Assembly (NCBI GenBank): GCA_904501715.1
Contig: CAJGCD010000001.1
Coordinates: forward strand, 1 to 51,206
Origin: an uncultured Clostridia bacterium
Lineage (GTDB): Bacteria; Bacillota; Clostridia; Oscillospirales; CAG-272
Direction of reading: 5' to 3'
Length of the DNA: 51,206 nt
In this document: one piece after another, positions 1-27,266 of the stretch
How the letters are laid out: each line of letters opens with the position of its first letter
Numbering within the stretch: position 1 is the first letter of the stretch
Translations under genes and position numbers: made by a program
Notes under the pieces: generated by a model
Databases searched by the model: none
Told to the model about the DNA's origin: nothing
What the model saw: only the letters and a program-made list of their open reading frames with translations

Positions 1-1
1 C

Positions 2-370
2 TACGTCCTCAAGGAGGTTGGAGCAGTTCTTAACTGGTTCGACGTTACCGAGGTCGAGGGACGCTTCTCTCTCAACGATAAGATATCCGATATTATGCAA
101 TCCAAGCGCGGAAAGATGTGGTTCATCGGCGTTGGTCTTAAGATAAAGAAGAAGATGAACGCTAACAAGAAGGGCGGCGACGGCGAAAAGAAGTCGGGCG
201 GCTTTGACGTTGACCTGAGCTCCGCTGACAGCGGACTCATGCAGATGATGGGCGGCTTTACCGTTCTTCGTCTTACAAGCATGATGGGTATGATGAACAT
301 TTCCTTTACCAAGGAAGAGCTGCTTAAGATGAACAAGAAGCTCAACCGCATCCGCAAGCCTAAAAACTGA
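2..370 (+). CDS. 3' end (122 codons) of a gene entering from the left edge. The tail resembles the C-terminal region of clostridial GH3-type beta-glucosidases, but the family call is tentative.
   Basis: Frame 2 is open from base 2 to the TGA at 368-370; the track shows it only from an internal Met at 95. It ends ...GGFTVLRLTSMMGMMNISFTKEELLKMNKKLNRIRKPKN and is followed by a strong terminator. Confidence 0.5.
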   Translation, partial: YVLKEVGAVLNWFDVTEVEGRFSLNDKISDIMQSKRGKMWFIGVGLKIKKKMNANKKGGDGEKKSGGFDVDLSSADSGLMQMMGGFTVLRLTSMMGMMNISFTKEELLKMNKKLNRIRKPKN

Positions 371-377
371 TAAATAT

Positions 378-412
378 AAAAAACAGACCGAGCCGAGCTC
401 GGTCTGTTTTTT
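378..412. terminator. Bidirectional rho-independent terminator between convergent genes
   Basis: A-run, then stem CAGACCGAG (384-392) / CTCGGTCTG (398-406) with a 5-nt loop, then TTTTTT (407-412). Confidence 0.75.
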
Positions 413-420
413 GTTTATAT

Positions 421-2283
421 TCACTTTGTAACGCGAAGAACTATACCGTCGCATTTTGGTATAGGCTTATTCAGCTCTCCGTATATCTCCTCTACTCTCC
501 AGCCTTCCTTTACAGAAGGATCAAACACTCTTTCTGTATCGGAATAGTTGATGGCAGTAACAATATAGCTATCATCGTTTTCCCTGCTCTGCGTCACGCA
601 TATCTGCGGGTCGTTACTCTTGATGACATAATTGTCTGTAAGCGTACCCGCAAACTCCTTGTATATCTTATAATAAGGAGCACTTTTATCCGGATTAAAG
701 CCGTGAGTCTGCTCTATTGCAATAAGCTCGGGAGTGAAATTCAAGAAGTAGACCTCTCCCTTTCCAAGCTTATTCCTTGAAAATACGATATTTCCGTTCT
801 CATTGGTCGCCAACACCTCCGCGCCTACAGATTCAAGCAGAAGCTCCTTTGCGGGGGTATATTGTATATCCCCAAAGGAGAAATGCGCCATATGAGTGCT
901 TCCCCTTTGCATACCCTTTGAGGTAAGTCCCGTAACTCTGTCAAACTCGGTCATGTGACCGCCGTAGTAGGTAATAAGAAGCTTAGCCCCCTTGTTCTCT
1001 ACACTGTCAAGAATTGCGTCGTAGGTACGGCGGAATGTGACCTCCCACCCCTCTATGGCGGGAAGTATATACGCGCCGGATTCAGAAGGGATACCGTCAC
1101 AGTTTTCGATACGAATATTGAAGCCAGCCTGCTTGGAAAGTATGTATGCGCCTGCGGCGCGGATATATTTTTCACCTCTGGGCAACACGCATACCGCGTC
1201 TGTATCCTTAGGTCCGATAGGGGGAAGCATGCTGAGCATCTCAGCCGATTTTTTCATCTGCTTTCCAACGGGCTTAGGCGCAAGCTCCTTATCCACAAGC
1301 CCCAGCTCACGCTCGTTCATTCCCCACGCGTAGGGCGCGTGCTTGAGGAGCAGATGCTCCATTCCGCACCACCAAAGATATCCCGTAAGATTATTCGCCC
1401 AAGCAGAAATCACATTCACCCGCAAAAAGTTAGCCGCCATCTCGCGGTTTCCTATTGCGTCGGAGAAGGTTCCCTGCTCCTGTATCATACAAGGCTTTCC
1501 ACCTATACCCGAATAAAACTCGCTTTGCGCTGTGGGAAGCATAGTAGTGCGCAGACCATTGTAAGGCTCTATATCACCTTTTATAGAGGGAGAAGGATAG
1601 GGGTGTGTACATAAAATGTCGCAAAGCTCACCTTGGTCCTCAATTCTCCACGCACCGCTCTCGGTATTAAGTCCGTGCATACCCGAGGATATGGGTCGCG
1701 TGCCGTCCACCGAGCGTATAGCGTTCACCATAAACGCGGTCCATTCATAGGCAAGATGCCGGTCAGACACCTTTTCAAGGCAGTTGCACTCGTTACCTAT
1801 ATCCCAGATGATTATATTATCTATGTCCTTAAGAGCGGAAACTATACCCTTTACGTATCTGTCTGTCCACCTTCTGACCTCGTGGTCGGAGATCAGATTT
1901 TTGCCTTCAAGAGCGGGAGGCGCGAACATTCTTCCGCTCATCCATCCCGTAAGGATAGACACGGTGATATCCATAGAAAACTCTTTTGCGATAGATGCAA
2001 ATTTTCTGAAGCGCTCTATCATAACGGGGTCTATTCCGTTACATTCGGGAGTCATATATTCCTCATTCTCCCCGAAAGCGTATTCCCTAAAATCATTAGT
2101 CCATCCGTACAGCTTTTTTATAGGTTGAAAATCCCGCCAATTGGGAAATACCCGCAAGTGAGTCACTCCGCATTCCTTAAGGGCGGTCAGGTCCTCTCTT
2201 ACGGTCTTTTCATCCCAGTTTTTCCACATTTCGGTTCCAGATTTGGAATCCCAATAGTTACAGCCAAGTAGAAATCTATTCAT
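421..2283 (-). CDS. Clan GH-A (GH5-like TIM-barrel) glycoside hydrolase with C-terminal beta-sandwich domains; no signal peptide
   Basis: 620-aa ORF. The N-terminus LGCNYWDSKSGTEMWKNWDE...GVTHLRVFPNWRDFQP is typical of (beta/alpha)8 glycosidases. WDIGNECN is the acid/base Glu motif and MIQEQGTF is a candidate nucleophile Glu. RBS AAAGGA lies upstream, 14 nt after the preceding gene. Confidence 0.7.
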   Translation of the reverse strand: MNRFLLGCNYWDSKSGTEMWKNWDEKTVREDLTALKECGVTHLRVFPNWRDFQPIKKLYGWTNDFREYAFGENEEYMTPECNGIDPVMIERFRKFASIAKEFSMDITVSILTGWMSGRMFAPPALEGKNLISDHEVRRWTDRYVKGIVSALKDIDNIIIWDIGNECNCLEKVSDRHLAYEWTAFMVNAIRSVDGTRPISSGMHGLNTESGAWRIEDQGELCDILCTHPYPSPSIKGDIEPYNGLRTTMLPTAQSEFYSGIGGKPCMIQEQGTFSDAIGNREMAANFLRVNVISAWANNLTGYLWWCGMEHLLLKHAPYAWGMNERELGLVDKELAPKPVGKQMKKSAEMLSMLPPIGPKDTDAVCVLPRGEKYIRAAGAYILSKQAGFNIRIENCDGIPSESGAYILPAIEGWEVTFRRTYDAILDSVENKGAKLLITYYGGHMTEFDRVTGLTSKGMQRGSTHMAHFSFGDIQYTPAKELLLESVGAEVLATNENGNIVFSRNKLGKGEVYFLNFTPELIAIEQTHGFNPDKSAPYYKIYKEFAGTLTDNYVIKSNDPQICVTQSRENDDSYIVTAINYSDTERVFDPSVKEGWRVEEIYGELNKPIPKCDGIVLRVTK

Positions 2284-2297
2284 AGGTAAATCCTTTC

Positions 2298-4319
2298 TTA
2301 AAGCTTTATTCGAGCTATCCTGTAATCAAAGCCGTCAAGCTCTATGGAGAGCTCGCTTGTATCGGATGCCATAGCATCCCCTGTTATAGCGTCGGTCACG
2401 CTCTGAGCCTTTTCGGGCAAAATGATGCTGACACATCCCGAAGGCTCGTTGACCATATTAGCCACAAAGCACAGCATTTCATTTCCTGCTTTATAGTAGC
2501 TGAATCTTACGCTGTCATCAGACACGCGTACGTCATTGTCGAAATACGGTCTCCACTGCGCCTCGCTTATGGGAAATTCATCAAGTGCTCTCCATACTCC
2601 GCTCATATCCTCAAGCGGCTGCTCAACGTCAACGGGCTTGGGGATTATACCAAATGGCAAAGCGTTTGCCATTGCCTGTCGGAAGGTCCACGTTGGAGGA
2701 TTTGAATAGCAGAGTATATTGATAGGAACTCCAAGATTTCTTCCCGTGTATACAGCTCTGTAATATTCCTCGGGAGCACGCTTCAGCTTTCCTTTAAGGA
2801 ATTCCCCTTGAACAGTCTCTCCGTCCCATAAGCAGTGCGAAAATGCGAGTGCCGCCACGGGGAAATTAGCAGAAGAGTGAGTACATATAGTTCCTCCGCG
2901 CTTTTCAACCATAGCGCAAAGTCGTTTCATCAGCTTTCTCACGGCAAATACGGGGTATGTCGTATGAAGCTTACCCTCTCTGTCGCGGTATCCGCAGCCA
3001 TGCTTTTCATTGTTGCAGGCTCTGCAGGTATTTATAGAATCCAGATACAGTCCGTCAAAGCCGAACTCGTCCATAAGCCTTTCCATAGCCTCTACGTATA
3101 TATCCTGCCACTCGCCGTTATAGCACACCTGAGGCGCTCGCTGCCAAGGGAAACGGTACCAATGCCAGCTTATATCCCCCACAAGATACTTTTCGTTATA
3201 CATAGGCGACATAGTGGATATCTCGTAGCCGAAATAAGGAATAACCTTCATTCCCCTCTTGTGCGCCTCCTCAACTATAAGCCTCAAGCGGTTTGCGCTC
3301 TCTACGGTGAGAAAGGGCGAATTCTGTATGTCGTTCCATTTTTCGTGTATGTAGAGCGTGTTGACTCCCATCCTCTTTATTCGGTCTATGACCGTCTCGG
3401 TATCTCCCGCAAGGGGCTTGAAAAGGAAATCCTCATAATTCTCGGGTATCTTCTTAAAGCAGTCTATATGCACGTTCTTTTCCGCGTAAGGGTTCTCGGG
3501 AAAGGGCTTTACGGGTGTGACCTGCATACCTATCCTGAAGGACAGCGGCATAAGGTTGTGTCCGCCGTTATCTCCCTTGTCGTACCAGGAAACGGGCTCG
3601 CTGTCCAAAAGATGTATGCGCACTATCACCGCATCGTCCTGTCTTACACATTCTATGACCCTCTTGCTATCGGCGGGCTGCCAATTTTCGTCGGATTCAA
3701 AGAATACCGAAAAGCCTATCTCATCATTGCCAAGGAACACCTGCTGAACGAAAGGCAGAGCAATACTCTCCTTTGGCATCGCGCCTATGTGATACATTAC
3801 GGGTAGCCCGTCGGGGATACTGCCGTCTATAATAGCCTCGCAGGCGGGTACGTATTGATATGAAGCGGCACATTCCTTCCTCAGAGGTATCTCAAGCCAA
3901 AGGCGGGTAAGCTCTCTTGCTCCCTTATCGCTTTCAGCCAGACCGAATGCCTGCGCGACCGTCGGTCCGTGGGTGGCTACCGTTATCCTCCAATCCATAC
4001 ATCCGTCATACTCGGCTTCAAGGGTAGTATTCATAATAAATCTCGGACTCTGCATATATTGGCAGGCGCTTACCGAGCTGCCGTCGTTACCGTACATAAG
4101 GCGGCTGCACACGTCGCTTATTACCAGCTCCTTGCCGTTTTCCGTACCGACCAAACGCATAGGAGCGGCTAAAAGCTCTTGTCCGCCCGATATTACAGAG
4201 GACAGAAGCGGCGAGGTGGACAAGGTATATTTTCTGTTCCATACGGATATTTCACAGCTTTTTCCGTCGCTGTCGGCTGTTATGGGCGTAAGCGACTTTA
4301 CCTCTAATTCCTTTTTCAT
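2298..4319 (-). CDS. Glycoside-hydrolase-like TIM-barrel protein of uncertain family (possibly GH123/DUF4091-like); no signal peptide
   Basis: 673-aa ORF with RBS AAAGGAGAAG. The central region VNTLYIHEKWNDIQNSPF...HKRGMKVIPYFGYE...FDGLYLDSIN...CLWDGE looks like a glycosidase barrel. The family assignment is from memory only. Confidence 0.55.
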   Translation of the reverse strand: MKKELEVKSLTPITADSDGKSCEISVWNRKYTLSTSPLLSSVISGGQELLAAPMRLVGTENGKELVISDVCSRLMYGNDGSSVSACQYMQSPRFIMNTTLEAEYDGCMDWRITVATHGPTVAQAFGLAESDKGARELTRLWLEIPLRKECAASYQYVPACEAIIDGSIPDGLPVMYHIGAMPKESIALPFVQQVFLGNDEIGFSVFFESDENWQPADSKRVIECVRQDDAVIVRIHLLDSEPVSWYDKGDNGGHNLMPLSFRIGMQVTPVKPFPENPYAEKNVHIDCFKKIPENYEDFLFKPLAGDTETVIDRIKRMGVNTLYIHEKWNDIQNSPFLTVESANRLRLIVEEAHKRGMKVIPYFGYEISTMSPMYNEKYLVGDISWHWYRFPWQRAPQVCYNGEWQDIYVEAMERLMDEFGFDGLYLDSINTCRACNNEKHGCGYRDREGKLHTTYPVFAVRKLMKRLCAMVEKRGGTICTHSSANFPVAALAFSHCLWDGETVQGEFLKGKLKRAPEEYYRAVYTGRNLGVPINILCYSNPPTWTFRQAMANALPFGIIPKPVDVEQPLEDMSGVWRALDEFPISEAQWRPYFDNDVRVSDDSVRFSYYKAGNEMLCFVANMVNEPSGCVSIILPEKAQSVTDAITGDAMASDTSELSIELDGFDYRIARIKL

Positions 4320-4330
4320 TTTCTTCTCCT

Positions 4331-6298
4331 TTAGTGCATTCTGAAATCCAGCTCCCGTGGGAGAGGATACTCGCCAAGTATCTCCTCCGCGCTAAGGCTA
4401 CACACATCCACATTCCTTTTTTTAGCCATTATCCAACCGTATATTTCGATCCAGATAGCCGAAAGCGAGTATTCGCCCTCCTTGATATCGTCTACCGTGA
4501 GAGAGGCGTTTATTATATCCGCGGCAAGCTCTGCTTCCCCAAGCCTTGAATAGCAGGCGCCCAGAAGCATTCTTACTCGTCCGTTTTCACGTATATCGGC
4601 GGGGAGAGTTTCGTAGAGCGACACCCATTCCCCATACCGCTCTGCCGCCATAAGAGCGTAGGCACATTCTATGGCAAGCGGCAAATAATCCTTTTTCAGC
4701 GAAAGTGCGGTCACCATATGCTCTGCCGCGCTGTCATAATCCCCTTCTATGTTTTTCTCTATCTGCGCAAGATTTCGGTAGCTCCAAGCATTTGCCTTAA
4801 GCTCTGCGGATTTAATAAAGCTATTCTTCGCCTTTGCTATATCTCCACCCGCGTAATACATCACACCTAACTGATTGTAGGCATACCAATCCTCTTTGAT
4901 ATTTTTGCCTAACAGCTCGGTCCAGAAGCTTCCCGTTACGTAGCTCGCTATAACGCTGTCAACAGAATGCTCGGGTAATGCTCCCGATTCCAAAAGCACG
5001 AGCCAATCTGTCTGCTCAGCGTCCATACTGTCCTCGGGAAAATGGCATATATGGCTGACGGGGACCTTTCTTATCTTGTTTTCAAGCGCGCCCCAGCCCG
5101 AGCCGTACAAAGCTATCTTGTCCTCTTCCACTATTTCAAAGGCATCCTTGACAAGCGACTTGTTTTTATTCGTCACAATGTCCGACACCTTGTCCGCGGC
5201 AGTACTGAAATCTCCGTGAGCCGCCTCGGGGTCAATGCTGAGCGCACAATAGCTCTCCCGCCATGATATACGGCTGTTGCCCTTCATAACGAAATGCTCA
5301 AGCTGTGTCTTCAGCAAGCCCGCCTGTATCTCTATATAGGCTCCCGCTTTATCGGAGAGCCACTCGTTCCAATGTCTTCCGCCCTCGTGCTGCCCCCATA
5401 CGAACATCTTTCTTCCCTTAAGTATTCGGTCCGAGGTCTGTAAAAGTCCCTTACCGTCCTTATCTGCCGTTGCTATCCATTTTTCGCTTTCGTCGGGGAT
5501 GTCAAAGAAGAAGTCTCTTGAGCGCGGAGAATTTACGGCATACGTAATATCTCTTCCGTCAACACAAGGCATCTGCGTTTTATCGAGAAAATATCCCCCG
5601 TCCTCGTATGCGCAGAAGAACATCTCATCAGCGGGAACTATAACACGGGTCTCTGGCGTTTCGGGAACGGCAATATTGGACCACCAATACATATAGGTTT
5701 CCTTGTCCGACGTATTTTCTATCGTAATATTGACCAACAGCTCTTTTTCACTGAGCGTTGCCTCAATAACGTACACTACCCCGCGTATGCGCTCGTATTC
5801 ATACATTCTGAGCACGGGCTCGCCCAGCTTATTCGTCACTTTTTGTGCAAACATAGGCGAGCAGGTCAGCGGATTATGTCCCTTTATACCTACGTTCCAT
5901 TCAACTCCGCCCGAAAACCACGCATTGCGCAAAGCAAGATTGGCAGGCTGAAAAACGTCGTTCTTATACAGAAGCTCTCGCTCCTCTGTTTTATCGTACA
6001 GCGACCAGAGCCTTCCGCCAAGCTCGGGTAAAAACACCGCTCTCACGTATTCGTTCTCAAGTATGGCGGCATCTATGCCTCTTTCTACTCTGTTTCGGTC
6101 GTATCCGTCGGTTATGCAATAGGGGAGCAGAGTATCTATCATTCCCTTTCCGATATACCTTCCGTCCTCTTTTGATATATTCTCACTAAGAGATATTTTA
6201 GCGCGTATGTAGCTGTTAACGTGTATGTCGGGCAAGCAGTTGTTTCTTCCCAAGTCTGCGGCAGGCATACTGTATTTCGTAAATAATAATTCTGTCAT
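4331..6298 (-). CDS. DUF5107 domain protein with a C-terminal TPR-repeat region
   Basis: I place the start at MTELLFTKY (ATG 6298, RBS GGAGGA 8 nt upstream) rather than the track's 6379. The N-terminal half (ENEYVRAVFLPELGGRLWSLYDK...NAWFSGGVEWNVG) matches my memory of DUF5107. The C-terminal 200 aa have TPR-like AxxYxxxG periodicity. Confidence 0.7.
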   Translation of the reverse strand: MTELLFTKYSMPAADLGRNNCLPDIHVNSYIRAKISLSENISKEDGRYIGKGMIDTLLPYCITDGYDRNRVERGIDAAILENEYVRAVFLPELGGRLWSLYDKTEERELLYKNDVFQPANLALRNAWFSGGVEWNVGIKGHNPLTCSPMFAQKVTNKLGEPVLRMYEYERIRGVVYVIEATLSEKELLVNITIENTSDKETYMYWWSNIAVPETPETRVIVPADEMFFCAYEDGGYFLDKTQMPCVDGRDITYAVNSPRSRDFFFDIPDESEKWIATADKDGKGLLQTSDRILKGRKMFVWGQHEGGRHWNEWLSDKAGAYIEIQAGLLKTQLEHFVMKGNSRISWRESYCALSIDPEAAHGDFSTAADKVSDIVTNKNKSLVKDAFEIVEEDKIALYGSGWGALENKIRKVPVSHICHFPEDSMDAEQTDWLVLLESGALPEHSVDSVIASYVTGSFWTELLGKNIKEDWYAYNQLGVMYYAGGDIAKAKNSFIKSAELKANAWSYRNLAQIEKNIEGDYDSAAEHMVTALSLKKDYLPLAIECAYALMAAERYGEWVSLYETLPADIRENGRVRMLLGACYSRLGEAELAADIINASLTVDDIKEGEYSLSAIWIEIYGWIMAKKRNVDVCSLSAEEILGEYPLPRELDFRMH

Positions 6299-6387
6299 TG
6301 TCTTATCCTCCGTTATACGTTTATTATAATGCCTGTGCTTTACGTATTCAATGTATAAACAGCTTGCTTTTTTGTACAAAATGACTT

Positions 6388-7149
6388 TTATTTCAAAGCT
6401 TCTCTATATCTTCCCGGAGTGCTTCCCGTTGCCGCCTTGAATTTTTTTGAAAAATGATATATATCGTAGTACCCGAGATGCTCGGCTATCTCCTTAAGCT
6501 TAAATTCTCCCGAGTCTATCATTGCCTTAGCCCGTGTCATCCTCAGCTCCTCGCGGTATTGCATTACAGAGCATCCAAGCTCCCTCCTGAAGCATAGCCG
6601 AAGATGCGAGGGGCTTATATTGCAGGCAGCCGAAATATCCTCAAGAGAAAAATTAACGTTGTAATGTCTGTGTATATATGCCAGCGCCGAGGATACACAA
6701 TTGCCCGCATCACCGCACTCCCCCGATATCCGCTTCATCATATCCATAAAGAGCTGTAAAAGCAGGATGCGTGCTTCTATATAGCAGTACTCTCCCTGCT
6801 CCTCCCACACTCTGCATATCCTTCGCACCGCGCTTATCTCCTCGGGGGTACAGTCGGTGACCTTTGGGAGCACTGTCCTCCCCTTAAGCAGAATATCCGC
6901 GTTGCTTGTAATATACGAACAAGGGTACGGAACGTCAAAGCTGTAGGAATCGCCCTCATCAAACCTGATAAACGTTCCCGCGCTTACCTTATTTACCTCG
7001 CCGCCGTAAAAAAAGCGTCCTTCTCCCGAAAGAAAGCAAACAAAGCCCGCGCCCTCTCTTGAACGTGTGGAGTATTTAAAATCCTCGCACTCGTCCTTCT
7101 TTACTATTACTCTTATGTCTCCTATATCTATGTCGCAAAAATAATTCAT
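6388..7149 (-). CDS. AraC/XylS-family transcriptional regulator (cupin sensor plus HTH)
   Basis: The C-terminal double HTH reads FSLEDISAACNISPSHLRLCFRRELGCSVMQYREELRMTRAKAMI...IAEHLGYYDIYHFSKKFKAATGSTPGRYR. Confidence 0.85.
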   Translation of the reverse strand: MNYFCDIDIGDIRVIVKKDECEDFKYSTRSREGAGFVCFLSGEGRFFYGGEVNKVSAGTFIRFDEGDSYSFDVPYPCSYITSNADILLKGRTVLPKVTDCTPEEISAVRRICRVWEEQGEYCYIEARILLLQLFMDMMKRISGECGDAGNCVSSALAYIHRHYNVNFSLEDISAACNISPSHLRLCFRRELGCSVMQYREELRMTRAKAMIDSGEFKLKEIAEHLGYYDIYHFSKKFKAATGSTPGRYREALK

Positions 7150-7233
7150 TTTCGCCTCGCTGCTTTTATATTTTTTGTATCAAACGTTTTTTTAATGATA
7201 TCATAAAATCATCAAAAATAAAAGTGTTTTTGT

Positions 7234-7271
7234 AAAAAAAGATAAAACGCGTCGAAAAACCGACGCGTTTT
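7234..7271 (-). terminator. Rho-independent terminator ending the GRE-activase unit
   Basis: Stem AAAACGCGTCG (7244-7254) / CGACGCGTTTT (7261-7271). On the minus strand it is followed by TTTTATCTTTTTTT. Confidence 0.7.
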
Positions 7272-7275
7272 GCTG

Positions 7276-8064
7276 TTAACTATTCTTTTTTTCTTTTATG
7301 AATTCCGCTCCCGCGTACTCTCTTCCCACGTTTTTGTATTTTACGGGGGCAAGCTCGTTGTAGGGCAGCTTTTCCCAAGGGTCCTCTCCCACTATTTGGG
7401 AGATGGCGCAAAGATTTTCGTAAGTATCGGTAATGTTAGGTATGAGAGGTGTCCTGAACGTATGCGGCTTTCCGCTTTTCTTCAGCCACGCGGCGTTTTC
7501 GAGTATTATTCCATTGTCAACACCCGTGTATTTCTTATGCGCGGCAGCCTCCGCCAGCTTTATGTCCATAAATACGAAGTCACAAAGCTCCGCCACTCTC
7601 TTAAAATCCTCCGCGGACGCATATCCCGAGGTTTCTATGGCAGTATGTATCCGTCCTCGCAAAATTGTGAGAAGCTCCGCGCAAAAATCTGCCTGAAGCA
7701 AGGGCTCACCGCCCGACAGCGTAACTCCTCCGCCCGTACTCCTGAAAAGTCCCTCATATTTCAACAGCTTACGAGAAAGTGCCTCGGCTTCCCACTCCTC
7801 GCCCGCTACACGCACCAAGTCCTGCGGACATATGTGAAGGCATCTGCCAAAATCCTTGCATTCCTCGTGATTACATTGTCTTTTGCACAGACCGCAGTGA
7901 GTGCAGTTTGCCTGCGACACGTATAGCTCTTTTTTAGGCGAAAGCCCCTCGGGATTATGACACCACACGCAGCGCAGAGGACATCCCTTCATAAAAACCG
8001 TAGTCCTTATTCCGCTCCCGTCGTGTACGGCAAACTCCTTGATATCAAAGACTAAGCCTTTCAT
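7276..8064 (-). CDS. Glycyl-radical enzyme activating enzyme (radical SAM)
   Basis: CPLRCVWCHNPE is the CxxxCxxC SAM cluster. CTHCGLCKRQC...CKDFGRCLHICP are ferredoxin-like auxiliary-cluster motifs. The ATG overlaps the GRE stop codon (ATGA at 8061-8064). Confidence 0.9.
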   Translation of the reverse strand: MKGLVFDIKEFAVHDGSGIRTTVFMKGCPLRCVWCHNPEGLSPKKELYVSQANCTHCGLCKRQCNHEECKDFGRCLHICPQDLVRVAGEEWEAEALSRKLLKYEGLFRSTGGGVTLSGGEPLLQADFCAELLTILRGRIHTAIETSGYASAEDFKRVAELCDFVFMDIKLAEAAAHKKYTGVDNGIILENAAWLKKSGKPHTFRTPLIPNITDTYENLCAISQIVGEDPWEKLPYNELAPVKYKNVGREYAGAEFIKEKKNS

Positions 8065-10031
8065 AGGCTGTATTCCTGACGAGCCATCACGTGGTCCTGA
8101 TACTCTCTGTCAAGCTCAACGAAATACGCCGACCATCCCCATATACGCACTATAAGCTGTCGGTAAGAATCGGGGTCTGCCTGTGCTGCCTTCAGCGTAT
8201 CGAGATTTATAGCGTTGAGCTGAAGCTGATGTCCACCTCTCTCAATAAAGTATTTTATCAGCATAGCAACCTTGGAAATACTGTCCTCGCTTGCGAACAC
8301 GCTTGAAGCAAGCTCAAGGGTAAGCGGACCTCCGTTTACAGTTCTTGTAAGGTCGTTGGCAGTGAAGGACTCTATGTCGCTGACAGGTCCCTTTACTTTC
8401 GCAAAAAGGCTGGGAGAGAAGTTAGTTCCAAATGCCTCGCCCTTTCGTCTTCCGTCGGCGGTAGCGCCTATATCGCGAGCGTGCCACAGATAGAACATAG
8501 CCGTACCCGTACCTGCTCTCCATACGCCGCCAAGACAGTTGCGCTTGCCCTCAAGAGCATCCGCGAAGCTATCAAGGAGAATGCCGCACATAGCGTCGGC
8601 ACGCTCCGAGTCAACACCCATCTTCGGCGCCTCATAACGGAGAGTGTGCAAGAGCTCGGGGTCGTTCTCAAAGTTTGCATCAAGGGCGGCTATAAGGCGC
8701 TCGGGGCTCACACTCTTTTCGTTATATACGTACTTCTCAACGCTCGCCAAAGCGTCAGCCGCAGAAGCAAGACCGCATCCGTGGAGTCCGAAATTGTTGT
8801 ACTTTTTAGCCTCTCTTAACAGATCCATAAAGGGAGATGCCACAAACCAAACATTGGCTATGCTCTCTCTTATTCTGTCACACTCGGCAGTTACTCTGCG
8901 CTTTACGTCACCAAGAAGCGCCTCAAAGCTTGACTTACCTATGTTCTCTCTTATAGCTGCATCAACGAGCTGAGGGAAATTTACCGCTCCGATATTGGCA
9001 ATATCATTTCCCACACCGGGAATTATAAACTCCCAGCACGCCGCAACAACGTAATTAACGGCATCCTCATAATCATATCCCAATCTTTGTAAGCCTTCTA
9101 TGACCACATCGTCGTTGGAATATTGCGGGAAACCAAGTCCCGCACGTGTAAGCTCCGTTCCCTTTTCAAATATGGAAAGAGGTGTTTTCTTGGAAACTCT
9201 CAAATTTATCTTAGGGTCGATAACGAGAAGATTTCTGCTGGCTTCGAGGCAGAGCTCGGAAAGCAGATTAAAGCAATCGTTTCCGTCCTTATCTATGCCG
9301 CCAAGAACCATACTCTGTCCGTTATCGCCCTGCTGAACACCAACGTAAAGGTCGCTGTCCTTATTAAAGGAAAGGAAGAAATCCTCAACGAGCTCAAGCG
9401 CACTCTCACGGGTATAAACGCCTGCATCCATATCATTTTTGAAATAAGGGTACATATACTGGTCAAATCGTCCTACCGTGTTGTGATAGTCACCCTCTAA
9501 CCACAGCGAATAATGAAGTATACGGAAGAACTGCAAAGCCTCGCGGAAGTTTCTCGCACCGTATCTGGGCACCTGAGTCAGCACCTCAACGATATCGCCC
9601 CTACCCATTCGCTTTGCTTCCTCAAGATATCTGTCCGAAAGGGCTATAATACTGTCAATTATACGCTTCTGATACTCGTCGGCAGACTCTCTGCGAGCAA
9701 GAAGACCCACCGAAATAGTCTTCTCGTACTCGGGAGAAAGATTGGATACGTATCCGAGCTCGTGAATATAATGCTCCTTTCGTATCTCTTTCCATTCTTT
9801 CTCGGTATAAACATCGGGCAGATTAGCCACAGTACGCATAAACACTATTTTTTCGTCCGAGTGAATGTGAGGCACTTCAAGAGATGAGAGATATTCAAAC
9901 CTACGCGTCATTCTCTCGGAGCTACACAGACCGAGAGCCGAATATTCAGATGAAAGCTCCTTATCCACCTTAAACCGCAATGCTCTGTGCTCTTTATTTA
10001 TAACGTAGTAGTCATATAAGCTCTTATTCAT
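8061..10031 (-). CDS. Glycyl radical enzyme (PFL-like superfamily, eliminase-type C-x-E active site), 656 aa, substrate unknown
   Basis: Start is MNKSLYDYY at 10031, with GGAG 7 nt upstream. GRE core motifs: REALQFFRILHYSLWLEG, GRFDQYMYPYF, Cys loop VVAACWEFIIPG, and Gly-radical loop LIVRIWGWSAYFVELD near the C-terminus. The track's 965-aa version extends upstream through the antisense strand of the GDPD gene, so I rejected it. Confidence 0.9.
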   Translation of the reverse strand: MNKSLYDYYVINKEHRALRFKVDKELSSEYSALGLCSSERMTRRFEYLSSLEVPHIHSDEKIVFMRTVANLPDVYTEKEWKEIRKEHYIHELGYVSNLSPEYEKTISVGLLARRESADEYQKRIIDSIIALSDRYLEEAKRMGRGDIVEVLTQVPRYGARNFREALQFFRILHYSLWLEGDYHNTVGRFDQYMYPYFKNDMDAGVYTRESALELVEDFFLSFNKDSDLYVGVQQGDNGQSMVLGGIDKDGNDCFNLLSELCLEASRNLLVIDPKINLRVSKKTPLSIFEKGTELTRAGLGFPQYSNDDVVIEGLQRLGYDYEDAVNYVVAACWEFIIPGVGNDIANIGAVNFPQLVDAAIRENIGKSSFEALLGDVKRRVTAECDRIRESIANVWFVASPFMDLLREAKKYNNFGLHGCGLASAADALASVEKYVYNEKSVSPERLIAALDANFENDPELLHTLRYEAPKMGVDSERADAMCGILLDSFADALEGKRNCLGGVWRAGTGTAMFYLWHARDIGATADGRRKGEAFGTNFSPSLFAKVKGPVSDIESFTANDLTRTVNGGPLTLELASSVFASEDSISKVAMLIKYFIERGGHQLQLNAINLDTLKAAQADPDSYRQLIVRIWGWSAYFVELDREYQDHVMARQEYSL

Positions 10032-10062
10032 ATGAATCTCCTTTTTTGTTTTTTTCAATTTG

Positions 10063-10071
10063 ATTATACCA
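10063..10071 (-). promoter_or_regulatory. Candidate extended -10 (TGGTATAAT) for the GRE operon; the -35 is poor, which suggests activator dependence
   Basis: The minus strand reads ...AAAGTGTGGTATAATCAAATTG about 30 nt upstream of the GRE ATG. No good TTGACA lies at 17 bp. Confidence 0.35.
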
Positions 10072-10112
10072 CACTTTATTGCATATTTCAGGCACTTTTT
10101 TGCAGATATACC

Positions 10113-10140
10113 TTGACATTCGGGTAAAAAGTGATATACT
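10113..10140 (+). promoter_or_regulatory. SigA-type promoter for the GDPD gene
   Basis: TTGACA (10113-10118), a 16-nt spacer, then TGATATACT (extended -10, 10132-10140). Confidence 0.5.
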
Positions 10141-10178
10141 AAAATCAACAAAAATAATATATGCCAAAGGAGATACTT

Positions 10179-11015
10179 ATGGATACCAAGGTTACACTTA
10201 CAGGTCACAGAGGATGGCGCGCAAAGTACCCCGAGAACACTATGCTGGGCTTCCGCAAGGCGCTTGAGATAGACGTTGACGCTATCGAGATGGACGCTCA
10301 TATGACCAAGGATTATCAGATAGTTGTCTGCCACGACGCAGACTTGGCACGCACCACCGACACCAAGGGAAAAATTTTCAATATGACCCTTGAGGAGGTA
10401 CGCAAGGCTGACGCGGGAATTAAATTCGGCGAGGAATTCAAGGGCGAAAAGGTTCCGACCTTCGAGGAGTTCGCCGAGCTTATGGCTACCCGCCCCGACG
10501 TAAAGCTTCTTCTTGAGCTTAAGGACTATCCCGAGGAGCTTGGCGATTTTGCGTATGCTTCGGCAGAGGCTACACTCTCTATCTGTAAGAAGTACGGCAT
10601 ATTCGGCAAGGACCGTCTTACCGTTATCACCTTCTCGGCAGGCATATGCGCATGGCTCAGAACCAGATACACAAAGGAGGACTTCTCCATCCACGGCTTC
10701 TATCCCAAGACCTGTATGAGAGGCTGGGAGAAGGACGACCCCTATAAGTACTATGATGAGGTATGCCTTTTCAACTGGGGCGACAAGACCCCTCAGGGCT
10801 TCCCCATAGACCACGGCACACCCGTAGCGGATAAGGCAAGATTTACCGAGTTTGCGCTTATGGGTATTAAGCCTTGCGTATATTACGGAATGAACACCGA
10901 CGAGAACGTTTACCGTCAGGCATTCGAGAATGGCGCCATAGGATTTACCTGTGACCACCCCGACGTCTGCGGTGAGATACTCGATAAGCTTGGCGCGCGT
11001 AAGCTTAAGAAATAA
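10179..11015 (+). CDS. Glycerophosphodiester phosphodiesterase (GDPD family), cytoplasmic
   Basis: I prefer the start MDTKVTL (ATG 10179, RBS AAAGGAGA). LTGHRGWRAKYPENTMLGFRKALEIDVDAIEMDAHMTKDYQIVVCHDADLARTTD is the GDPD signature. Confidence 0.85.
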   Translation: MDTKVTLTGHRGWRAKYPENTMLGFRKALEIDVDAIEMDAHMTKDYQIVVCHDADLARTTDTKGKIFNMTLEEVRKADAGIKFGEEFKGEKVPTFEEFAELMATRPDVKLLLELKDYPEELGDFAYASAEATLSICKKYGIFGKDRLTVITFSAGICAWLRTRYTKEDFSIHGFYPKTCMRGWEKDDPYKYYDEVCLFNWGDKTPQGFPIDHGTPVADKARFTEFALMGIKPCVYYGMNTDENVYRQAFENGAIGFTCDHPDVCGEILDKLGARKLKK

Positions 11016-11037
11016 TAACGCTTATATTTATAACCTA

Positions 11038-11066
11038 AAGAGTACGGATGAACTCCGTACTCTTTT
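11038..11066 (+). terminator. Rho-independent terminator
   Basis: Stem AAGAGTACGGA / TCCGTACTCTT with a 5-nt loop, followed by TT. Confidence 0.65.
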
Positions 11067-11114
11067 GACTATGTACTTAAAAGCTCAAAAAACCTGAAAA
11101 ATCCAAAAATTCTA

Positions 11115-11143
11115 TTTACAAATTTCGCCAATTGTGCTATACT
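11115..11143 (+). promoter_or_regulatory. SigA-type promoter for ygjV-azlCD
   Basis: TTTACA, a 17-nt spacer, then TGCTATACT (extended -10). Confidence 0.5.
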
Positions 11144-11175
11144 TTACTCCGTGATTATCTTTTGAGGAGCTTTTT

Positions 11176-11712
11176 ATGGAACTGACTGAAATAATAGGTC
11201 ATATACTCGGCTTCGTTGCTCTTATAGTAATATTTTTCACCTATCAGATGCGTGAAAAAAGGCTTATCATAGTTACCCAGACCGTATCTATAATCCTGAT
11301 GTGTCTGCAATACCTTCTCATAGGCGCTTACTCGGGATTTCTCTTGAACGTTGTATGCATAGTACGAAATATAGCCTACTATTACAAGGACAAAAAGCTT
11401 TTTTCCTCACCTCTTGTTCCCGCTGTATTTGCCGCCGCTATTATCGGCTTGAGCATATTCTCCTGGGAGGGCTATTACTCGGTATTTATGATACTTGCGC
11501 TCTCCATAAATACTCTTTGCCTTGGATACTTCGGCCCTCAAAAGCTCCGCGTCAGCCTTTTGTTTACCTGCACCTGCGCTATAATATACGATCTTTTCGT
11601 AGGCTCCGTGACAGGTATTGCTTTTGAGTCCATAGCCATAATCTCTGCCATCGTCGGCATAATACGCTTTACTAAGGACAGCACATCTCAATCAAAAAAG
11701 GATAAGCAATGA
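11176..11712 (+). CDS. YgjV-family inner-membrane protein
   Basis: A 178-aa, roughly 6-TM protein. The N-terminal pattern IGFVALIVIFFTYQMREKR...LLIGAYSGFLLNVVCIVRN resembles YgjV. Confidence 0.55.
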   Translation: MELTEIIGHILGFVALIVIFFTYQMREKRLIIVTQTVSIILMCLQYLLIGAYSGFLLNVVCIVRNIAYYYKDKKLFSSPLVPAVFAAAIIGLSIFSWEGYYSVFMILALSINTLCLGYFGPQKLRVSLLFTCTCAIIYDLFVGSVTGIAFESIAIISAIVGIIRFTKDSTSQSKKDKQ

Positions 11713-12428
11713 CTAAAAAACAATGGTTTGCCAAGGGAGCAATGGCGGGTATTCCCATTTCTCTGGGTTACTTTGCCGTAGCAATCGCCTTGGGTATTTC
11801 AGCAAAAAAAGCAGGAATAAGTGTGCTTCAGGCATCGGTCACCAGCCTGCTCATAAACGCATCCGCGGGCGAATACGCAGGCTTTACTCTCATCGCGGCG
11901 GGCGCTACCTATCTTGAAGTAATATTTATGGAAGCAGTCGCCAACGCCAGATATCTGCTTATGTCCACGGCGCTCAGCCAGAGACTGGAGCCGGGCACGG
12001 GAATATTAAAACGGCTTTTATTGGGCTTTACCGTCACCGACGAGATATTCGGCGTATCCATAGGACTTGACGGCTACGTCAGCCCCTATTTCACCTACGG
12101 CGCATTCGTGGTGGCTACCTGCGGATGGACGTCGGGAACTATGTTCGGCGCTTTGCTGGGCGAGATATTACCCTCAAGCGTAGTCAGTGCGCTCAGCGTA
12201 GGACTTTTCGGAATGTTCATATCGATATTTATCCCCGAGGCAAAGAAAAACAAGATAGTTGCCGCTCTGGTAGTTATCAGCTTTGCCGTGTCGCTTACCT
12301 TCGCTAAGCTGCCTTACATCTCGGATATCCCCGAGGGCATAAGAGTCATAATCATTACTGTTCTTATCTCGGTAGGCGCGGCGCTCCTCTTCCCCATCAA
12401 AGAAAAGGAGGAAAGCGAAAATGGATAA
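11709..12428 (+). CDS. azlC: AzlC-family branched-chain amino acid exporter subunit
   Basis: GIPISLGYFAVAIALGISAKKAGIS...NASAGEYAG is typical of AzlC. It overlaps ygjV by 4 nt and azlD by 8 nt. Confidence 0.8.
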   Translation: MTKKQWFAKGAMAGIPISLGYFAVAIALGISAKKAGISVLQASVTSLLINASAGEYAGFTLIAAGATYLEVIFMEAVANARYLLMSTALSQRLEPGTGILKRLLLGFTVTDEIFGVSIGLDGYVSPYFTYGAFVVATCGWTSGTMFGALLGEILPSSVVSALSVGLFGMFISIFIPEAKKNKIVAALVVISFAVSLTFAKLPYISDIPEGIRVIIITVLISVGAALLFPIKEKEESENG

Positions 12429-12738
12429 GATATGGATATACATAATCTGTATGGCGGCAGTGACCTATCTTATAAGGGTGATACCGCTGACCCTCATCAG
12501 AAAGCCTATAAAGAACGTATTTTTACGCTCATTCCTTTACTACGTACCCTACGTTACGTTGGCGGTAATGACCTTCCCCGCCATAGTTGACGCTACGGGA
12601 TATCCTCTCGCGGGGCTTATTGCCTTCTTTGTGGCAATCGCCTTGGCTTATTTCGGTAAGGGACTGTTTTTCGTCAGCGTTTCTGCCTGCGTTACGGTAT
12701 TCGTTCTTGAAAGAATATTTGATATTTTTATAAAGTAA
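12421..12738 (+). CDS. azlD: AzlD-family small membrane subunit
   Basis: A 105-aa hydrophobic protein directly following and overlapping azlC. Confidence 0.75.
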   Translation: MDKIWIYIICMAAVTYLIRVIPLTLIRKPIKNVFLRSFLYYVPYVTLAVMTFPAIVDATGYPLAGLIAFFVAIALAYFGKGLFFVSVSACVTVFVLERIFDIFIK

Positions 12739-12770
12739 AAAAATCCGAGAGCTCAGCTCTCGGATTTTTA
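12737..12770. terminator. Bidirectional terminator shared by azlD (+) and the beta-galactosidase gene (-)
   Basis: Stem TCCGAGAGC (12744-12752) / GCTCTCGGA (12756-12764), flanked by A7 and T5. Confidence 0.8.
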
Positions 12771-12771
12771 T

Positions 12772-15584
<2,813 letters not shown>

Positions 15585-18636: not shown

Positions 18637-18667
18637 TAATATAAATAAATCTGATAATATAAATAAA
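18632..18667 (+). repeat. Perfect tandem duplication of an 18-nt unit (TCTGATAATATAAATAAA x2) spanning the putP stop codon
   Basis: Bases 18632-18649 and 18650-18667 are identical. Confidence 0.9.
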
Positions 18668-18700
18668 AAAGAAAAAGCCGCAAGTGCGGCTTTTTCTTTT
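18664..18700. terminator. Bidirectional terminator between putP (+) and the AraC gene (-)
   Basis: AAAAAGCCGC-AAGT-GCGGCTTTTT, flanked by A and T runs. Confidence 0.75.
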
Positions 18701-19531: not shown

Positions 19532-19659
19532 ATTAACCCTCCGCAAAAAGTCAACTTCCTGCCATAAATCATACATTAAATGTTTTGTTTTGTCAAGTAT
19601 TATATGGTAAATTATATACATGATCTGCTATTTTAAAAGCAAACAAAGGAGACACGAAC

Positions 19660-23103: not shown

Positions 23104-23132
23104 TTGACATAACCCTTCAAATGTTATATAAT
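23104..23132 (+). promoter_or_regulatory. Consensus SigA promoter of the rnf operon
   Basis: TTGACA (23104-23109), exactly 17 nt, then TATAAT (23127-23132). A second GATTGACATAA copy lies 28 nt upstream. Confidence 0.6.
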
Positions 23133-23201
23133 ATATGTGACGTTGAAAAACCAACGGCTTTTTGCCTAAAACATTATACAAAAAGAAAGGCAGGTACAGA
23201 A

Positions 23202-27255: not shown

Positions 27256-27266
27256 GGAGGTATAAT

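Follow-up and report, generated by a model that had tools for sequence, protein, structure and literature searches.

Layout of the locus

The window analyzed here is a stretch of 51,206 nucleotides from an uncultured Clostridia bacterium. The features at its left end are given below by position and strand.

1..370, plus strand: 3' end of a convergent GH2-family gene, which as a whole encodes 755 aa in the parent contig
376..414, both strands: bidirectional intrinsic terminator, stem of 16-18 bp (7 GC pairs), a T-run on each strand
421..2283, minus strand: GH5-like (clan GH-A) glycosidase, 620 aa, from PDB matches and catalytic motifs
2298..4319, minus strand: 673-aa glycosidase-fold protein, called GH673 here, from an AF2 model and Foldseek
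4331..6298, minus strand: DUF5107 and TPR protein, 655 aa, from Pfam
6323..6351, minus strand: sigma-70-type promoter of the DUF5107-GH673-GH5 operon, TTGAAT-17-TATAAT
6371..6386, minus strand: conserved 16-mer AGTCATTTTGTACAAA, candidate AraC operator, from comparison across loci
6388..7149, minus strand: AraC-family regulator of the hydrolase module, Pfam HTH_AraC 1e-22
7244..7271, minus strand: intrinsic terminator of the GRE-activase operon, 12-bp stem with 6 GC pairs, then ATCTTTTTTT
7276..8064, minus strand: activating enzyme (radical SAM) of the glycyl radical enzyme, 262 aa, TIGR02494
8061..10031, minus strand: short glycyl radical enzyme (GRE), 656 aa, Pfam PFL-like and Gly_radical
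10063..10091, minus strand: GRE promoter, CTGAAA-17-TATAAT with TG extended -10
10161..11015, plus strand: divergent glycerophosphodiester phosphodiesterase (GDPD), Pfam GDPD 2.6e-34

Gene calls and Pfam/NCBIfam matches place all six minus-strand genes of 421-10031 at the positions and in the order that a first-pass annotation of the sequence had given them. The terminator that it reported after the GRE-activase pair is present, with its stem and T-run, and so is the tight packing of the last three genes, which are separated by 11 and 14 nt and each preceded by a ribosome binding site (RBS). The GRE and activase ORFs overlap by 4 nt, and the GRE has an AGGAG RBS. A TTG at 6379 was rejected as the start of the DUF5107 gene; the ATG at 6298 gives 655 aa, matching the length of homologues, and has a GGAGGA RBS with the promoter ~25 nt upstream. 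The gene at the left edge had been taken for GH3-like, which is incorrect: the edge fragment by itself has no Pfam match, but the full gene, in locus L171, matches Glyco_hydro_2, Glyco_hydro_2_C and DUF4982 (L numbers denote the loci used for comparison). The terminator at 376..414 closes both this convergent gene and the hydrolase operon. The GRE was thought to head one cluster spanning 421-10031; the block is instead made up of at least three transcription units.

A hydrolase module with its own regulator

The DUF5107 protein matches Pfam DUF5107 (6e-31) and TPR and, in the PDB, 5cd6 (function unknown; 1e-11). Its gene adjoins that of GH673 in 14 of the 15 loci in which GH673 is at least 40% identical, and DUF5107 is a conserved partner of GH673. 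All Pfam matches of GH673 are sub-threshold (GHL6, GHL10, DUF6259 and GH66, with GH123_N in fragments), and a sequence search against the PDB returned no match. The AF2 model (pLDDT 91) consists of an N-terminal beta-sandwich, a (beta/alpha)8 barrel (TIM-barrel) and a C-terminal beta-sandwich, the same three-domain architecture as clan GH-D-type alpha-galactosidases/galactosaminidases (GH36 8X1B and AgaA 4FNU; GH97; GH101). The top Foldseek matches are the GH36 FpGalactosaminidase 8x1b (3.7e-20), GH101, GH97, GH36 AgaA, GH13 and GH31, at probability 1.0 for the top ones, with TM scores no higher than 0.5 and identity of ~10%. Unlike GH36, GH97 and GH101, to which its TM is only ~0.5, GH673 has no sequence-level family assignment, and its invariant CxNxxHGCG motif and obligatory-looking DUF5107-TPR partner are both missing from those families.

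The 620-aa protein aligns with the endo-beta-mannanase 7bob (2.8e-20), with 9y4v and with GH5_18 beta-mannosidases (BlGH5_18, ScGH5_18), sharing their N-terminal barrel. Its GNEC and IQEQG motifs match the N-E acid/base (E165) and the Q-E-x-G nucleophile (E269) of these enzymes, from which it differs by low identity and an extra C-terminal region of ~220 residues. The protein itself has no Pfam GH5 match above threshold; its orthologue in L083 (42% identity) matches Pfam Cellulase/GH5_mannosidase.

At GH673 loci elsewhere an AraC gene is often adjacent, true GH36 genes are often nearby (L081, L083, L087 and L106), and a GH5-like gene is found in L083 and L148. AraC, DUF5107 and GH673, with or without GH5-like and GH36 genes, are a conserved module in its own right. 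The AraC of the window is a full-length orthologue (51% identity) of the AraC that precedes DUF5107-GH673 in L081, a locus lacking a GRE, and resembles GRE-associated AraC proteins in the HTH only; by this comparison it is the orthologue of the hydrolase-module regulator. The 16-mer AGTCATTTTGTACAAA lies upstream of DUF5107/GH673 in like orientation and position in eight independent loci, namely the window, L001, L081, L085, L090, L092, L173 and L174, with only two off-target matches in 2.45 Mb, and is likely the operator of this AraC. The regulator would bind the candidate operator upstream of the -35 and turn on the DUF5107-GH673-GH5-like operon.

The hydrolase-type proteins had been described as lacking signal peptides and the cluster as lacking a transporter. 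We find no signal peptide or transmembrane helix in these proteins (maximum 19-residue Kyte-Doolittle score <=1.4) and no transporter within 421-10031. As proposed, the three hydrolase-type proteins are cytoplasmic, and their tight, AraC-associated operon is consistent with work on an imported oligosaccharide. In such a scheme the three enzymes would together trim the imported oligosaccharide, the GH5-like protein as a predicted retaining enzyme of the beta-mannosidase/mannanase type (E165/E269), and GH673 as an alpha-glycosidase-type barrel working with DUF5107. The recurring GH36 alpha-galactosidase neighbors suggest galactomannan-type or other alpha-galactosylated oligosaccharides as the substrate.

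Linkage of the GRE to its neighbors

The GRE and its activase make up a self-contained operon of two genes, which has an extended -10 promoter and a strong terminator to itself. Conservation of the -10 block extends to L001, L173 and L174, and that of the terminator to L001 and L173. The poor -35 of this promoter had been read as a sign of AraC control, but it is explained by the TG-extended -10, TGTGGTATAAT, and the GRE promoter lacks the 16-mer. The best 16-mer match between the GRE and DUF5107 promoters is 11/16, no better than in shuffled sequence. Given the strong terminator, the separate promoter and a 16-mer found only upstream of DUF5107/GH673, the GRE and hydrolase modules are separately controlled.

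In order to place the GRE in context, we used 80 fetched species-level loci, all of which contain the GRE (80/80). In 70 of these, tblastn detects the activase beside the GRE, and the commonest other neighbor is a raffinose-synthase-like (RafS-like) alpha-galactosidase homologue of the GH36 clan, which adjoins the pair in 21/80, usually in the order GRE-activase-RafS. In the PDB this homologue is best matched by 7exf (1.5e-46), a plant alkaline alpha-galactosidase/raffinose synthase, and the same query found none in a control set of 90 GH673 loci. Regulator genes of the AraC (16 loci) or LacI (7 loci) type are found near the GRE, most of them directly upstream. By contrast, DUF5107/AraC lies next to the GRE in a single locus of the 80, that of the closest relative. 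This adjacency is seen at GRE identities of 92, 89 and 88% and is absent at 85% and at 78% and below; in the 85% locus (L175) a LysR gene takes the place after the GRE pair. Beyond the closest relatives, then, the GRE is not conserved beside these genes, a result that the first-pass annotation itself had named as refuting its proposed pathway. Two independent functional modules brought side by side by lineage-specific synteny, with a GRE that does not depend on the hydrolase module, are in our view the probable explanation of the locus.

The first-pass annotation favored a single pathway in which the GRE transforms a sugar, sugar derivative or aglycone set free by the hydrolases, and AraC coordinates both in this lineage. 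We consider this unlikely. Four related genomes or contigs do retain the adjacency and co-orientation, the GRE family favors GH36-clan neighbors elsewhere while GH673 has a GH36-like fold, and in this strain a 26-mer lying between the GDPD and GRE genes recurs upstream of AraC with 23/26 positions alike, a similarity reached by 0/200 shuffles. However, the 26-mer is not retained in relatives, profile-profile comparison detects no homology between GH673 and the RafS-like partner (hhalign probability 0.3%), and the window GRE family is found in no GH673-homologue locus outside the lineage of the window. Other, unrelated GREs do flank DUF5107-GH673 within 10 kb in two metagenome loci (three in L103, one in L133), but some GRE in 2/80 GH673 loci is about the chance level in GRE-rich Clostridia. 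Together with the 1/80 linkage lost at 85% identity, the terminator and separate promoters, the orthology of the AraC and the lack of the 16-mer at the GRE promoter, these results do not support joint function and regulation. We agree with the earlier statement that no described pathway joins a GRE to a DUF5107/hydrolase set.

The divergent GDPD is a possible functional neighbor of the GRE. By analogy with GPC -> choline -> CutC, GDPD could supply a head-group alcohol (e.g. glycerol or inositol) from glycerophosphodiesters for dehydration by the GRE in this lineage. The two genes share an intergenic region in the window, L001, L173 and L174, and L045/L046 and L011 likewise have GDPD-domain proteins close to the GRE; none turned up in the 90 GH673 loci. 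In the PDB, the nearest relative of the GRE is a glycerol dehydratase. Nevertheless, only about 5/80 loci have GDPD near the GRE, it is gone in L175, the glycerol-dehydratase pocket residues are not kept, and there are no downstream aldehyde- or alcohol-dehydrogenase or microcompartment genes. We consider this partnership unlikely.

A clade of short glycyl radical enzymes

Returning to the GRE as an independent module, its Pfam domains are PFL-like (4e-74) and Gly_radical (3e-16), and every NCBIfam score falls under its cut-off. The clade of short GREs to which it belongs is large and uncharacterised; it is represented in 484 GTDB species, and its members are uniform in length (654-660 aa). 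The activase scores 249 bits with TIGR02494 (cut-off 174) and carries a CPLRCVWC (CX3CX2C) cluster motif (residue 28) as well as a second, auxiliary motif rich in Cys (residue 54).

The best solved relative is DhaB1 of the Clostridium butyricum B12-independent glycerol dehydratase DhaB1/DhaB2 (1R8W; E 1.6e-63 with the single sequence, 6.8e-78 with a profile). As in DhaB1, the GRE has the Gly motif (Gly632 in RIWG632W), the Cys332-Trp-Glu334 loop (C433/E435) and H183 (H281), and a PFL2-type activase is encoded alongside. Unlike DhaB1, it has 656 rather than 787 aa, with ~110 N-terminal residues unaligned and an internal deletion, identity is about 25-30% only, and there is no 1,3-propanediol dehydrogenase gene near the window GRE. 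The DhaB1 positions S282, Y339, D447 and Y640, which we take to form the glycerol-binding pocket, are replaced by N184, G238/gap, N346 and G509, invariant clade-wide.

HypD (trans-4-hydroxy-L-proline dehydratase, 6VXC) is the second-best NCBIfam model (257 bits, cut-off 1100). It has the Cys-X-Glu loop in common with the GRE, and the activase scores 232 bits with the HypD-activase model. The position aligned to HypD D278, presumably the amine-binding residue, is Asn184. PflD/YbiW (8YJO, 8YJN) score similarly (E 5.9e-57) and share a small residue (Gly) at the Y339 position; they differ in length (~780-826 aa), in having ASS where the GRE has YHN and Asp where it has N346, and in their linkage to PTS and aldolase genes, the GRE clade having no conserved kinase or PTS partner. 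PflD/YbiW act on 1,5-anhydro-hexitol 6-phosphates, a precedent in gut bacteria for eliminase-type GREs with sugar-derived substrates (PMC12441222).

Judged by its motifs and by alignment to 1r8w, 6vxc and 8yjo, the GRE lacks the signature residues of glycerol dehydratase, HypD and PFL and keeps a Gly radical motif together with the Cys-X-Glu loop seen in 1,2-eliminases. That it is a plain pyruvate formate-lyase, or a B12-independent dehydratase of glycerol or propanediol, is very improbable despite the 'pyruvate formate-lyase' names of homologues in source annotations and the top match to 1r8w, since the PFL model TIGR01255 gives 57 bits (cut-off 994) and the generic TIGR01774 275 (cut-off 678), Ala331-Cys332 replaces the Cys-Cys pair of PFL, the pocket is altered, glycerol dehydratase is ~130 residues longer, and the surroundings contain no genes of a 1,3-propanediol or propanol pathway.

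From these motifs we infer a 1,2-eliminase or dehydratase whose substrate would be polyhydroxylated and larger than glycerol. The activase would form the Gly632 radical, which would generate a Cys332 thiyl radical able to abstract H at a carbinol carbon of the substrate. Glu334 would take the proton from the hydroxyl as the vicinal oxygen leaving group is eliminated; the conserved Glu has a role in GRE 1,2-lyases (PMC6453916).

Implications

With the RafS-like gene adjoining the GRE pair in 21/80 loci, often with AraC or LacI nearby, a sugar- or polyol-derived substrate is plausible, probably one freed by GH36-clan alpha-galactosidase-like enzymes. The earlier suggestion that the GRE acts on a sugar-derived molecule is independently supported by these neighbors in other genomes, not by the 421-10031 cluster. 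Because the two modules are separately controlled and inherited and lie side by side in just one narrow lineage of bacteria, their neighborhood reveals no new pathway. The arrangement, retained across several related species (88-92% GRE identity), may bring this lineage an advantage, selective or regulatory. Finally, both modules are associated, each independently, with enzymes of the GH36 clan, and the fold of GH673 is itself GH36-like; a shared alpha-galactoside theme is possible.

Gene order and transcription units

Open reading frame (ORF) listing and translation bore out the six co-oriented genes that the first-pass annotation had described on the minus strand at 421-10031:

421-2283, minus strand, 620-aa protein (GH5-like), ORF
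2298-4319, minus strand, 673-aa glycosidase-fold protein (GH673), ORF
4331-6298, minus strand, DUF5107-TPR protein, identified with Pfam
6388-7149, minus strand, AraC regulator, identified by HTH_AraC
7276-8064, minus strand, radical SAM activase, identified by TIGR02494
8061-10031, minus strand, glycyl radical enzyme (GRE), identified by PFL-like and Gly_radical domains

The DUF5107 gene was assigned the ATG at 6298 as its start, and an upstream TTG was rejected. The ATG carries a GGAGGA ribosome-binding site and gives the 655 aa found in homologues. The GRE start at 10031 carries an AGGAG ribosome-binding site. The activase and GRE reading frames have 4 nt in common, the activase lies 126 nt from AraC, AraC lies 89 nt from the corrected DUF5107 start, and the three hydrolase-type genes are spaced by 14 and 11 nt. 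No signal peptide or transmembrane segment was detected by hydropathy in the cluster proteins. The convergent gene at the left edge (1-370, plus strand), which had been taken for GH3, is actually the tail of a GH2-family protein of 755 aa with Glyco_hydro_2 and DUF4982 domains in the parent contig (ENA ERZ27234996, k141_556372; L171).

A strong terminator follows the 3' end of the activase gene (7271-7244, a 12-bp stem and then a T-run), and the hydrolase operon ends at a bidirectional terminator (376-414). The GRE promoter reads CTGAAA-17-TATAAT with a preceding TG, and a separate promoter, TTGAAT-17-TATAAT at 6351-6323 of the minus strand, stands directly before DUF5107. Given the terminator and the separate promoters, the block would comprise at least three transcription units, namely GRE-activase, AraC, and DUF5107-GH673-GH5-like. 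The poor -35 of the GRE promoter had been read as fitting control by AraC. Extended -10 promoters need little -35, and therefore the TG-extended -10 accounts for the weak element without an activator. Scanning 1-13000 against Rfam revealed neither a riboswitch nor a leader, the sole match being sub-threshold and located on a terminator.

Linkage of the GRE to the hydrolase genes across genomes

The GRE, AraC, DUF5107-TPR and the two hydrolase-like enzymes had been proposed to form one cytoplasmic glycan pathway, and co-occurrence across genomes was therefore examined by searching the best 80 GRE loci, with 10-kb flanks, with all window proteins. The GRE was present in 80 of the 80 and the activase in 70, and DUF5107 together with AraC was found in 1 of 80, that being L001, the closest relative in the sample (89% GRE identity). 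Exact-protein look-ups showed that the order GRE-activase-AraC-DUF5107-GH673, with a divergent glycerophosphodiester phosphodiesterase (GDPD) gene beside the GRE, is kept in close relatives at 92% (L173), 89% (L001) and 88% (L174) GRE identity. At 85% the linkage is lost, with a LysR gene following the activase (L175), and the arrangement is missing from every locus at 78% GRE identity or less.

The reverse view gave the same picture. Homologues of GH673 number 480 at E <=1e-5, all of approximately 670-700 aa, and the GRE family of the window occurs in none of the seven distinct GH673 contexts and 80 metagenome loci searched from other lineages. Some GRE is found in 2 of 80 GH673 loci, which is about chance level in the GRE-rich Clostridia. 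In a human-gut metagenome contig (OIYO01000734.1, 1579-21531; L103), three different GRE units lie on the flanks of a DUF5107-GH673 pair. Each includes an AraC and an activase of its own, and an SDR is also part of one unit and an EamA transporter part of another. These GREs are shortened and uncharacterised (707, 746 and 760 aa) and fall below TIGR01774. A further locus (L133, 2297-4483) has a 728-aa GRE approximately 4 kb from a GH673 homologue. The GREs of these two loci are only 24-25% identical to that of the window. The layout is real, but GRE-hydrolase adjacency is not conserved across divergent genomes and the pathway inferred from it is not upheld. The GRE-activase and hydrolase genes are two conserved modules, found side by side in one narrow lineage only, and their components belong to known superfamilies in which they are uncharacterised members.

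The AraC regulator and its candidate operator

The AraC protein has the AraC/XylS arrangement of a C-terminal double HTH (HTH_AraC 9.6e-23, HTH_18 1.6e-20) and an N-terminal sensing domain, the region of which gives a weak Cupin_2 match. Along its whole length it shares 51% identity with the AraC encoded ahead of DUF5107-GH673 in a locus that has no GRE (L081). It is 33% identical to one adjoining GH673 in L085, and its similarity to GRE-associated AraC proteins is confined to the HTH. A 16-mer, AGTCRTTTTRTACAAA, occurs some 80-110 nt ahead of the start of DUF5107 or GH673 in the window (6386-6371) and in L001, L081, L085, L090, L092, L173 and L174, with only two other matches in 2.45 Mb, and is likely the operator of the hydrolase module's AraC. 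The 16-mer is absent from the GRE promoter, and the best match between the GRE and DUF5107 promoters is 11/16, no better than shuffles. Taken with the terminator and separate promoters, its location elsewhere speaks against the predicted co-transcription of the GRE with the hydrolases, or a regulatory site shared by them.

A 26-mer on the minus strand, TTATTTTTG[T/A]TGATTTTA[GT/TG]ATATCA, was considered as an operator common to GRE and AraC. Its two sites, in the GDPD-GRE intergenic region (10157-10132) and upstream of AraC (7221-7196), share 23 of 26 positions, a similarity that is significant in the window strain (reached by 0 of 200 dinucleotide shuffles). We dropped this candidate because within L001, L173 and L174 the similarity is no greater than the null and the sites overlap promoter -10 or -10-like elements.

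Predicted chemistry of the GRE

Sequence features place the protein in the GRE superfamily. It matches the ten-stranded barrel domain PFL-like (4.1e-74) and about 30 GREs in the PDB, and carries a clade-invariant C-terminal glycine radical motif, RIWG632WSAYF (consensus RVxG[FWY]; Gly_radical 3.4e-16), and a predicted catalytic cysteine of the Cys loop, C332, that aligns with C433 of 1r8w and the catalytic cysteines of HypD, PflD and CutC. The co-encoded activase scores 249 bits against a cut-off of 174 for TIGR02494 and has the CX3CX2C motif CPLRCVWC. The GRE family is large and tight, with database matches in the thousands, the best 120 at 68-92% identity, nearly all of 654-660 aa, and relatives in 484 GTDB species representatives.

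The best solved relatives, 1r8w glycerol dehydratase (GDH), PflD, HypD, propanediol dehydratase and CutC, are all similarly distant, and all NCBIfam models score far under their cut-offs. Compared with B12-independent glycerol dehydratase, Cys332-Trp-Glu334 (AACWEF) aligns with C433/E435 and H183 with H281. However, the GDH glycerol-pocket residues S282, Y339, D447 and Y640 are replaced by N184, G238 or a gap, N346 and G509, the generic TIGR01774 model gives 275 against 678, and the protein is approximately 130 residues shorter, its first ~110 residues aligning to no solved GRE; this activity is unlikely. HypD is similarly discounted (NF043068, 257 bits against 1100), as Asn184 occupies the position of D278, the amine-binding Asp. 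Pyruvate formate-lyase is dismissed because its Cys-Cys pair is replaced by Ala331-Cys332 and TIGR01255 gives 57 bits against a 994 cut-off.

These kept and replaced residues are invariant across the short-GRE clade. A Cys-X-Glu is typical of GRE 1,2-lyases, whose Glu removes the proton from the hydroxyl of the substrate (PMC6453916), and E334 supplies the Glu expected of 1,2-eliminases of the GDH, propanediol dehydratase, CutC, HypD and IslA/IseG type. The enzyme would thus be of the eliminase type, with a roomier and polar pocket that would suit a polyhydroxylated substrate bigger than glycerol. Precedent for sugar-derived substrates is provided by YbiW/PflD, GREs that act on anhydro-hexitol phosphates (PMC12441222). 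An AlphaFold model of the GRE built from an 11-sequence alignment (pLDDT 63) was too poor for Foldseek or pocket use.

Neighbours of the GRE family in other genomes

Neighbours in the best 80 GRE loci were clustered and scanned against Pfam and NCBIfam. A raffinose-synthase/Sip1-like (RafS-like) protein of approximately 680 aa is found in 21 of the 80, usually as GRE-activase-RafS with all three genes on the same strand, and at GRE identities of 61-77%; as a rough control, the same query matched 0 of 90 GH673 loci. Its best PDB match is 7exf, a plant alkaline alpha-galactosidase/RFS6 (1.5e-46). In three loci GH127, of the beta-L-arabinofuranosidase family, lies immediately upstream of the GRE in the same operon, giving four genes on one strand, GH127, GRE, activase and RafS-like (L031, 1692-8367; L045, 8151-14783; L046, 8169-14744), with GH36-like and GDPD-domain genes nearby. 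These loci are the most informative context for the substrate of the GRE clade. Regulators, most of them directly upstream, are AraC in 16 loci and LacI in 7. Other recurrent neighbours include GH36 melibiases, GDPD-domain proteins, esterases, GDSL lipases, MFS transporters, DUF4867 and KDG-kinase-like PfkB. The recurrent neighbours as a whole set the GRE family in glycoside-utilisation contexts. A sugar-derived substrate, as originally suggested, is therefore plausible from other genomes, the window cluster itself not being the source of support; what those genomes point to is an alpha-galactosidase-like partner, which is absent from the 51-kb window.

An inositol pathway, with PfkB as IolC and AP_endonuc_2 as IolE, was dropped, as the PfkB neighbours resemble KDG/KDGal kinases rather than IolC, and scores of the TIM-barrel neighbours fall well short of the IolE/IolI cut-offs. 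A literature search returned nothing relevant joining GRE with raffinose synthase, glycoside hydrolase or galactosidase.

The hydrolase module

In fold GH673 is a glycosidase, but its sequence falls into no family. Pfam gives sub-threshold GHL6, GHL10, DUF6259 and GH66 matches, GH123_N in fragments only, and no Melibiase/GH36 match, and there is no PDB sequence match. The AF2 model (pLDDT 91) is a beta-sandwich/TIM-barrel/beta-sandwich, a three-domain arrangement with a central TIM barrel that it is predicted to share with GH36 and clan GH-D. The nearest structures by Foldseek are GH36 FpGalactosaminidase (8x1b, 3.7e-20), GH101, GH97, GH36 AgaA (4fnu, 3.8e-16), GH13 and GH31, at TM ~0.5 and approximately 10% identity. 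D427 and E501 are guesses at the catalytic residues. Invariant in the family are a motif rich in Cys and His, CxNxxHGCG, and one more Cys that directly follows the putative nucleophile strand (DGLYLD); the residues concerned are C399, C435, N437, H440 and C442. They may form a metal site, structural or catalytic, of a kind that would be unusual among clan GH-D-like enzymes.

The idea that GH673 stands in for the RafS-like partner as a non-orthologous replacement was set aside as fold-level speculation, since profile-profile homology between the two families is lacking (hhalign probability 0.3%).

DUF5107 (PF17128) is assigned at 108 bits against a gathering score of 24.4 (E 6e-31), together with TPR repeats, and its only PDB match is 5cd6, a structure of unknown function. 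It adjoins GH673 in 14 of 15 loci at 40% GH673 identity or more, 10 of 17 at 36-40%, and 8 of 24 below, and AraC is often next to the pair. Literature searches on DUF5107 and DUF6259/GHL6 returned nothing relevant.

Alignments of the 620-aa protein were obtained to the GH5 beta-mannanase 7bob (2.8e-20), to 9y4v and to GH5_18 beta-mannosidases. Its GNE165C and IQE269QG fall on DLGNELD/LLQEFG of 7bob and LGNETN/LQEVG of 9y4v, and it so has the predicted N-E acid/base (strand 4) and nucleophile Glu (strand 7) of the GH5 (clan GH-A) (beta/alpha)8 barrel. Its only Pfam match is a sub-threshold Glyco_hydro_2_C (16.6 against 21), and a 42%-identical orthologue matches Cellulase and, faintly, GH5_mannosidase. 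This gene recurs in GH673 loci L083 and L148, and true GH36 melibiases are found in L081, L083, L087 and L106. Since GH36 and GH5 neighbours recur beside the module, it most likely trims imported alpha-galactosylated or beta-mannoside oligosaccharides in the cytoplasm under AraC control.

Wider surroundings

Further features of the window are:

12772-15381, minus strand, GH2 beta-galactosidase with LacZ-type domains
15707-16879, minus strand, adjoining 390-aa ORF without a Pfam match
23121-28088, plus strand, RnfC-type gene and then five co-oriented ORFs, with Pfam on the first gene only; probably an Rnf complex operon

The GH2 and 390-aa genes are both syntenic in the closest relatives, and strengthen the impression that in this lineage the GRE sits within an island for glycoside utilisation. 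An SSF sodium:solute symporter, a second AraC and a 1112-aa Laminin_G_3 and metallophosphoesterase protein lie at 17062-22998, 7-13 kb from the GRE, and a similar Laminin_G_3 and Metallophos protein is found near the DUF5107 module in L081 (1566-3440).

Implications

The linkage, if true as first stated, would have meant a new anaerobic pathway in which glycoside hydrolysis is coupled with radical chemistry, and the window neighbourhood does not demonstrate one. The fullest joint reading, to which we give little credence as a whole, starts from the recurrent GRE-activase-RafS-like operons, sometimes after GH127. In it, the short ~656-aa GRE clade is an unrecognised radical lyase or dehydratase for a sugar, cyclitol or polyol that is set free from plant alpha-galactosides or related glycosides, with raffinose-family or galactinol-type sugars, galactosylglycerol and extensin-type glycans as candidate sources; in the window lineage the GRE may have been recruited next to a second alpha-glycosidase-type module, DUF5107-GH673, and may cooperate with it; and, as a separate matter, DUF5107 and GH673 may form a two-component glycosidase founding a new GH family. 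Two leads follow. The first is the short-GRE clade of the gut and rumen, which is very widespread and has an active site matching no characterised GRE, the best genomic clue to its substrate being the RafS-like alpha-galactosidase homologue. The second is the conserved pair of DUF5107 and a GH36-like fold, which has an AraC of its own and a recognisable candidate operator motif and may be a new glycosidase system acting on oligosaccharides of the alpha-galactosylated or mannoside type. Either lead is a sensible target for enzyme discovery.
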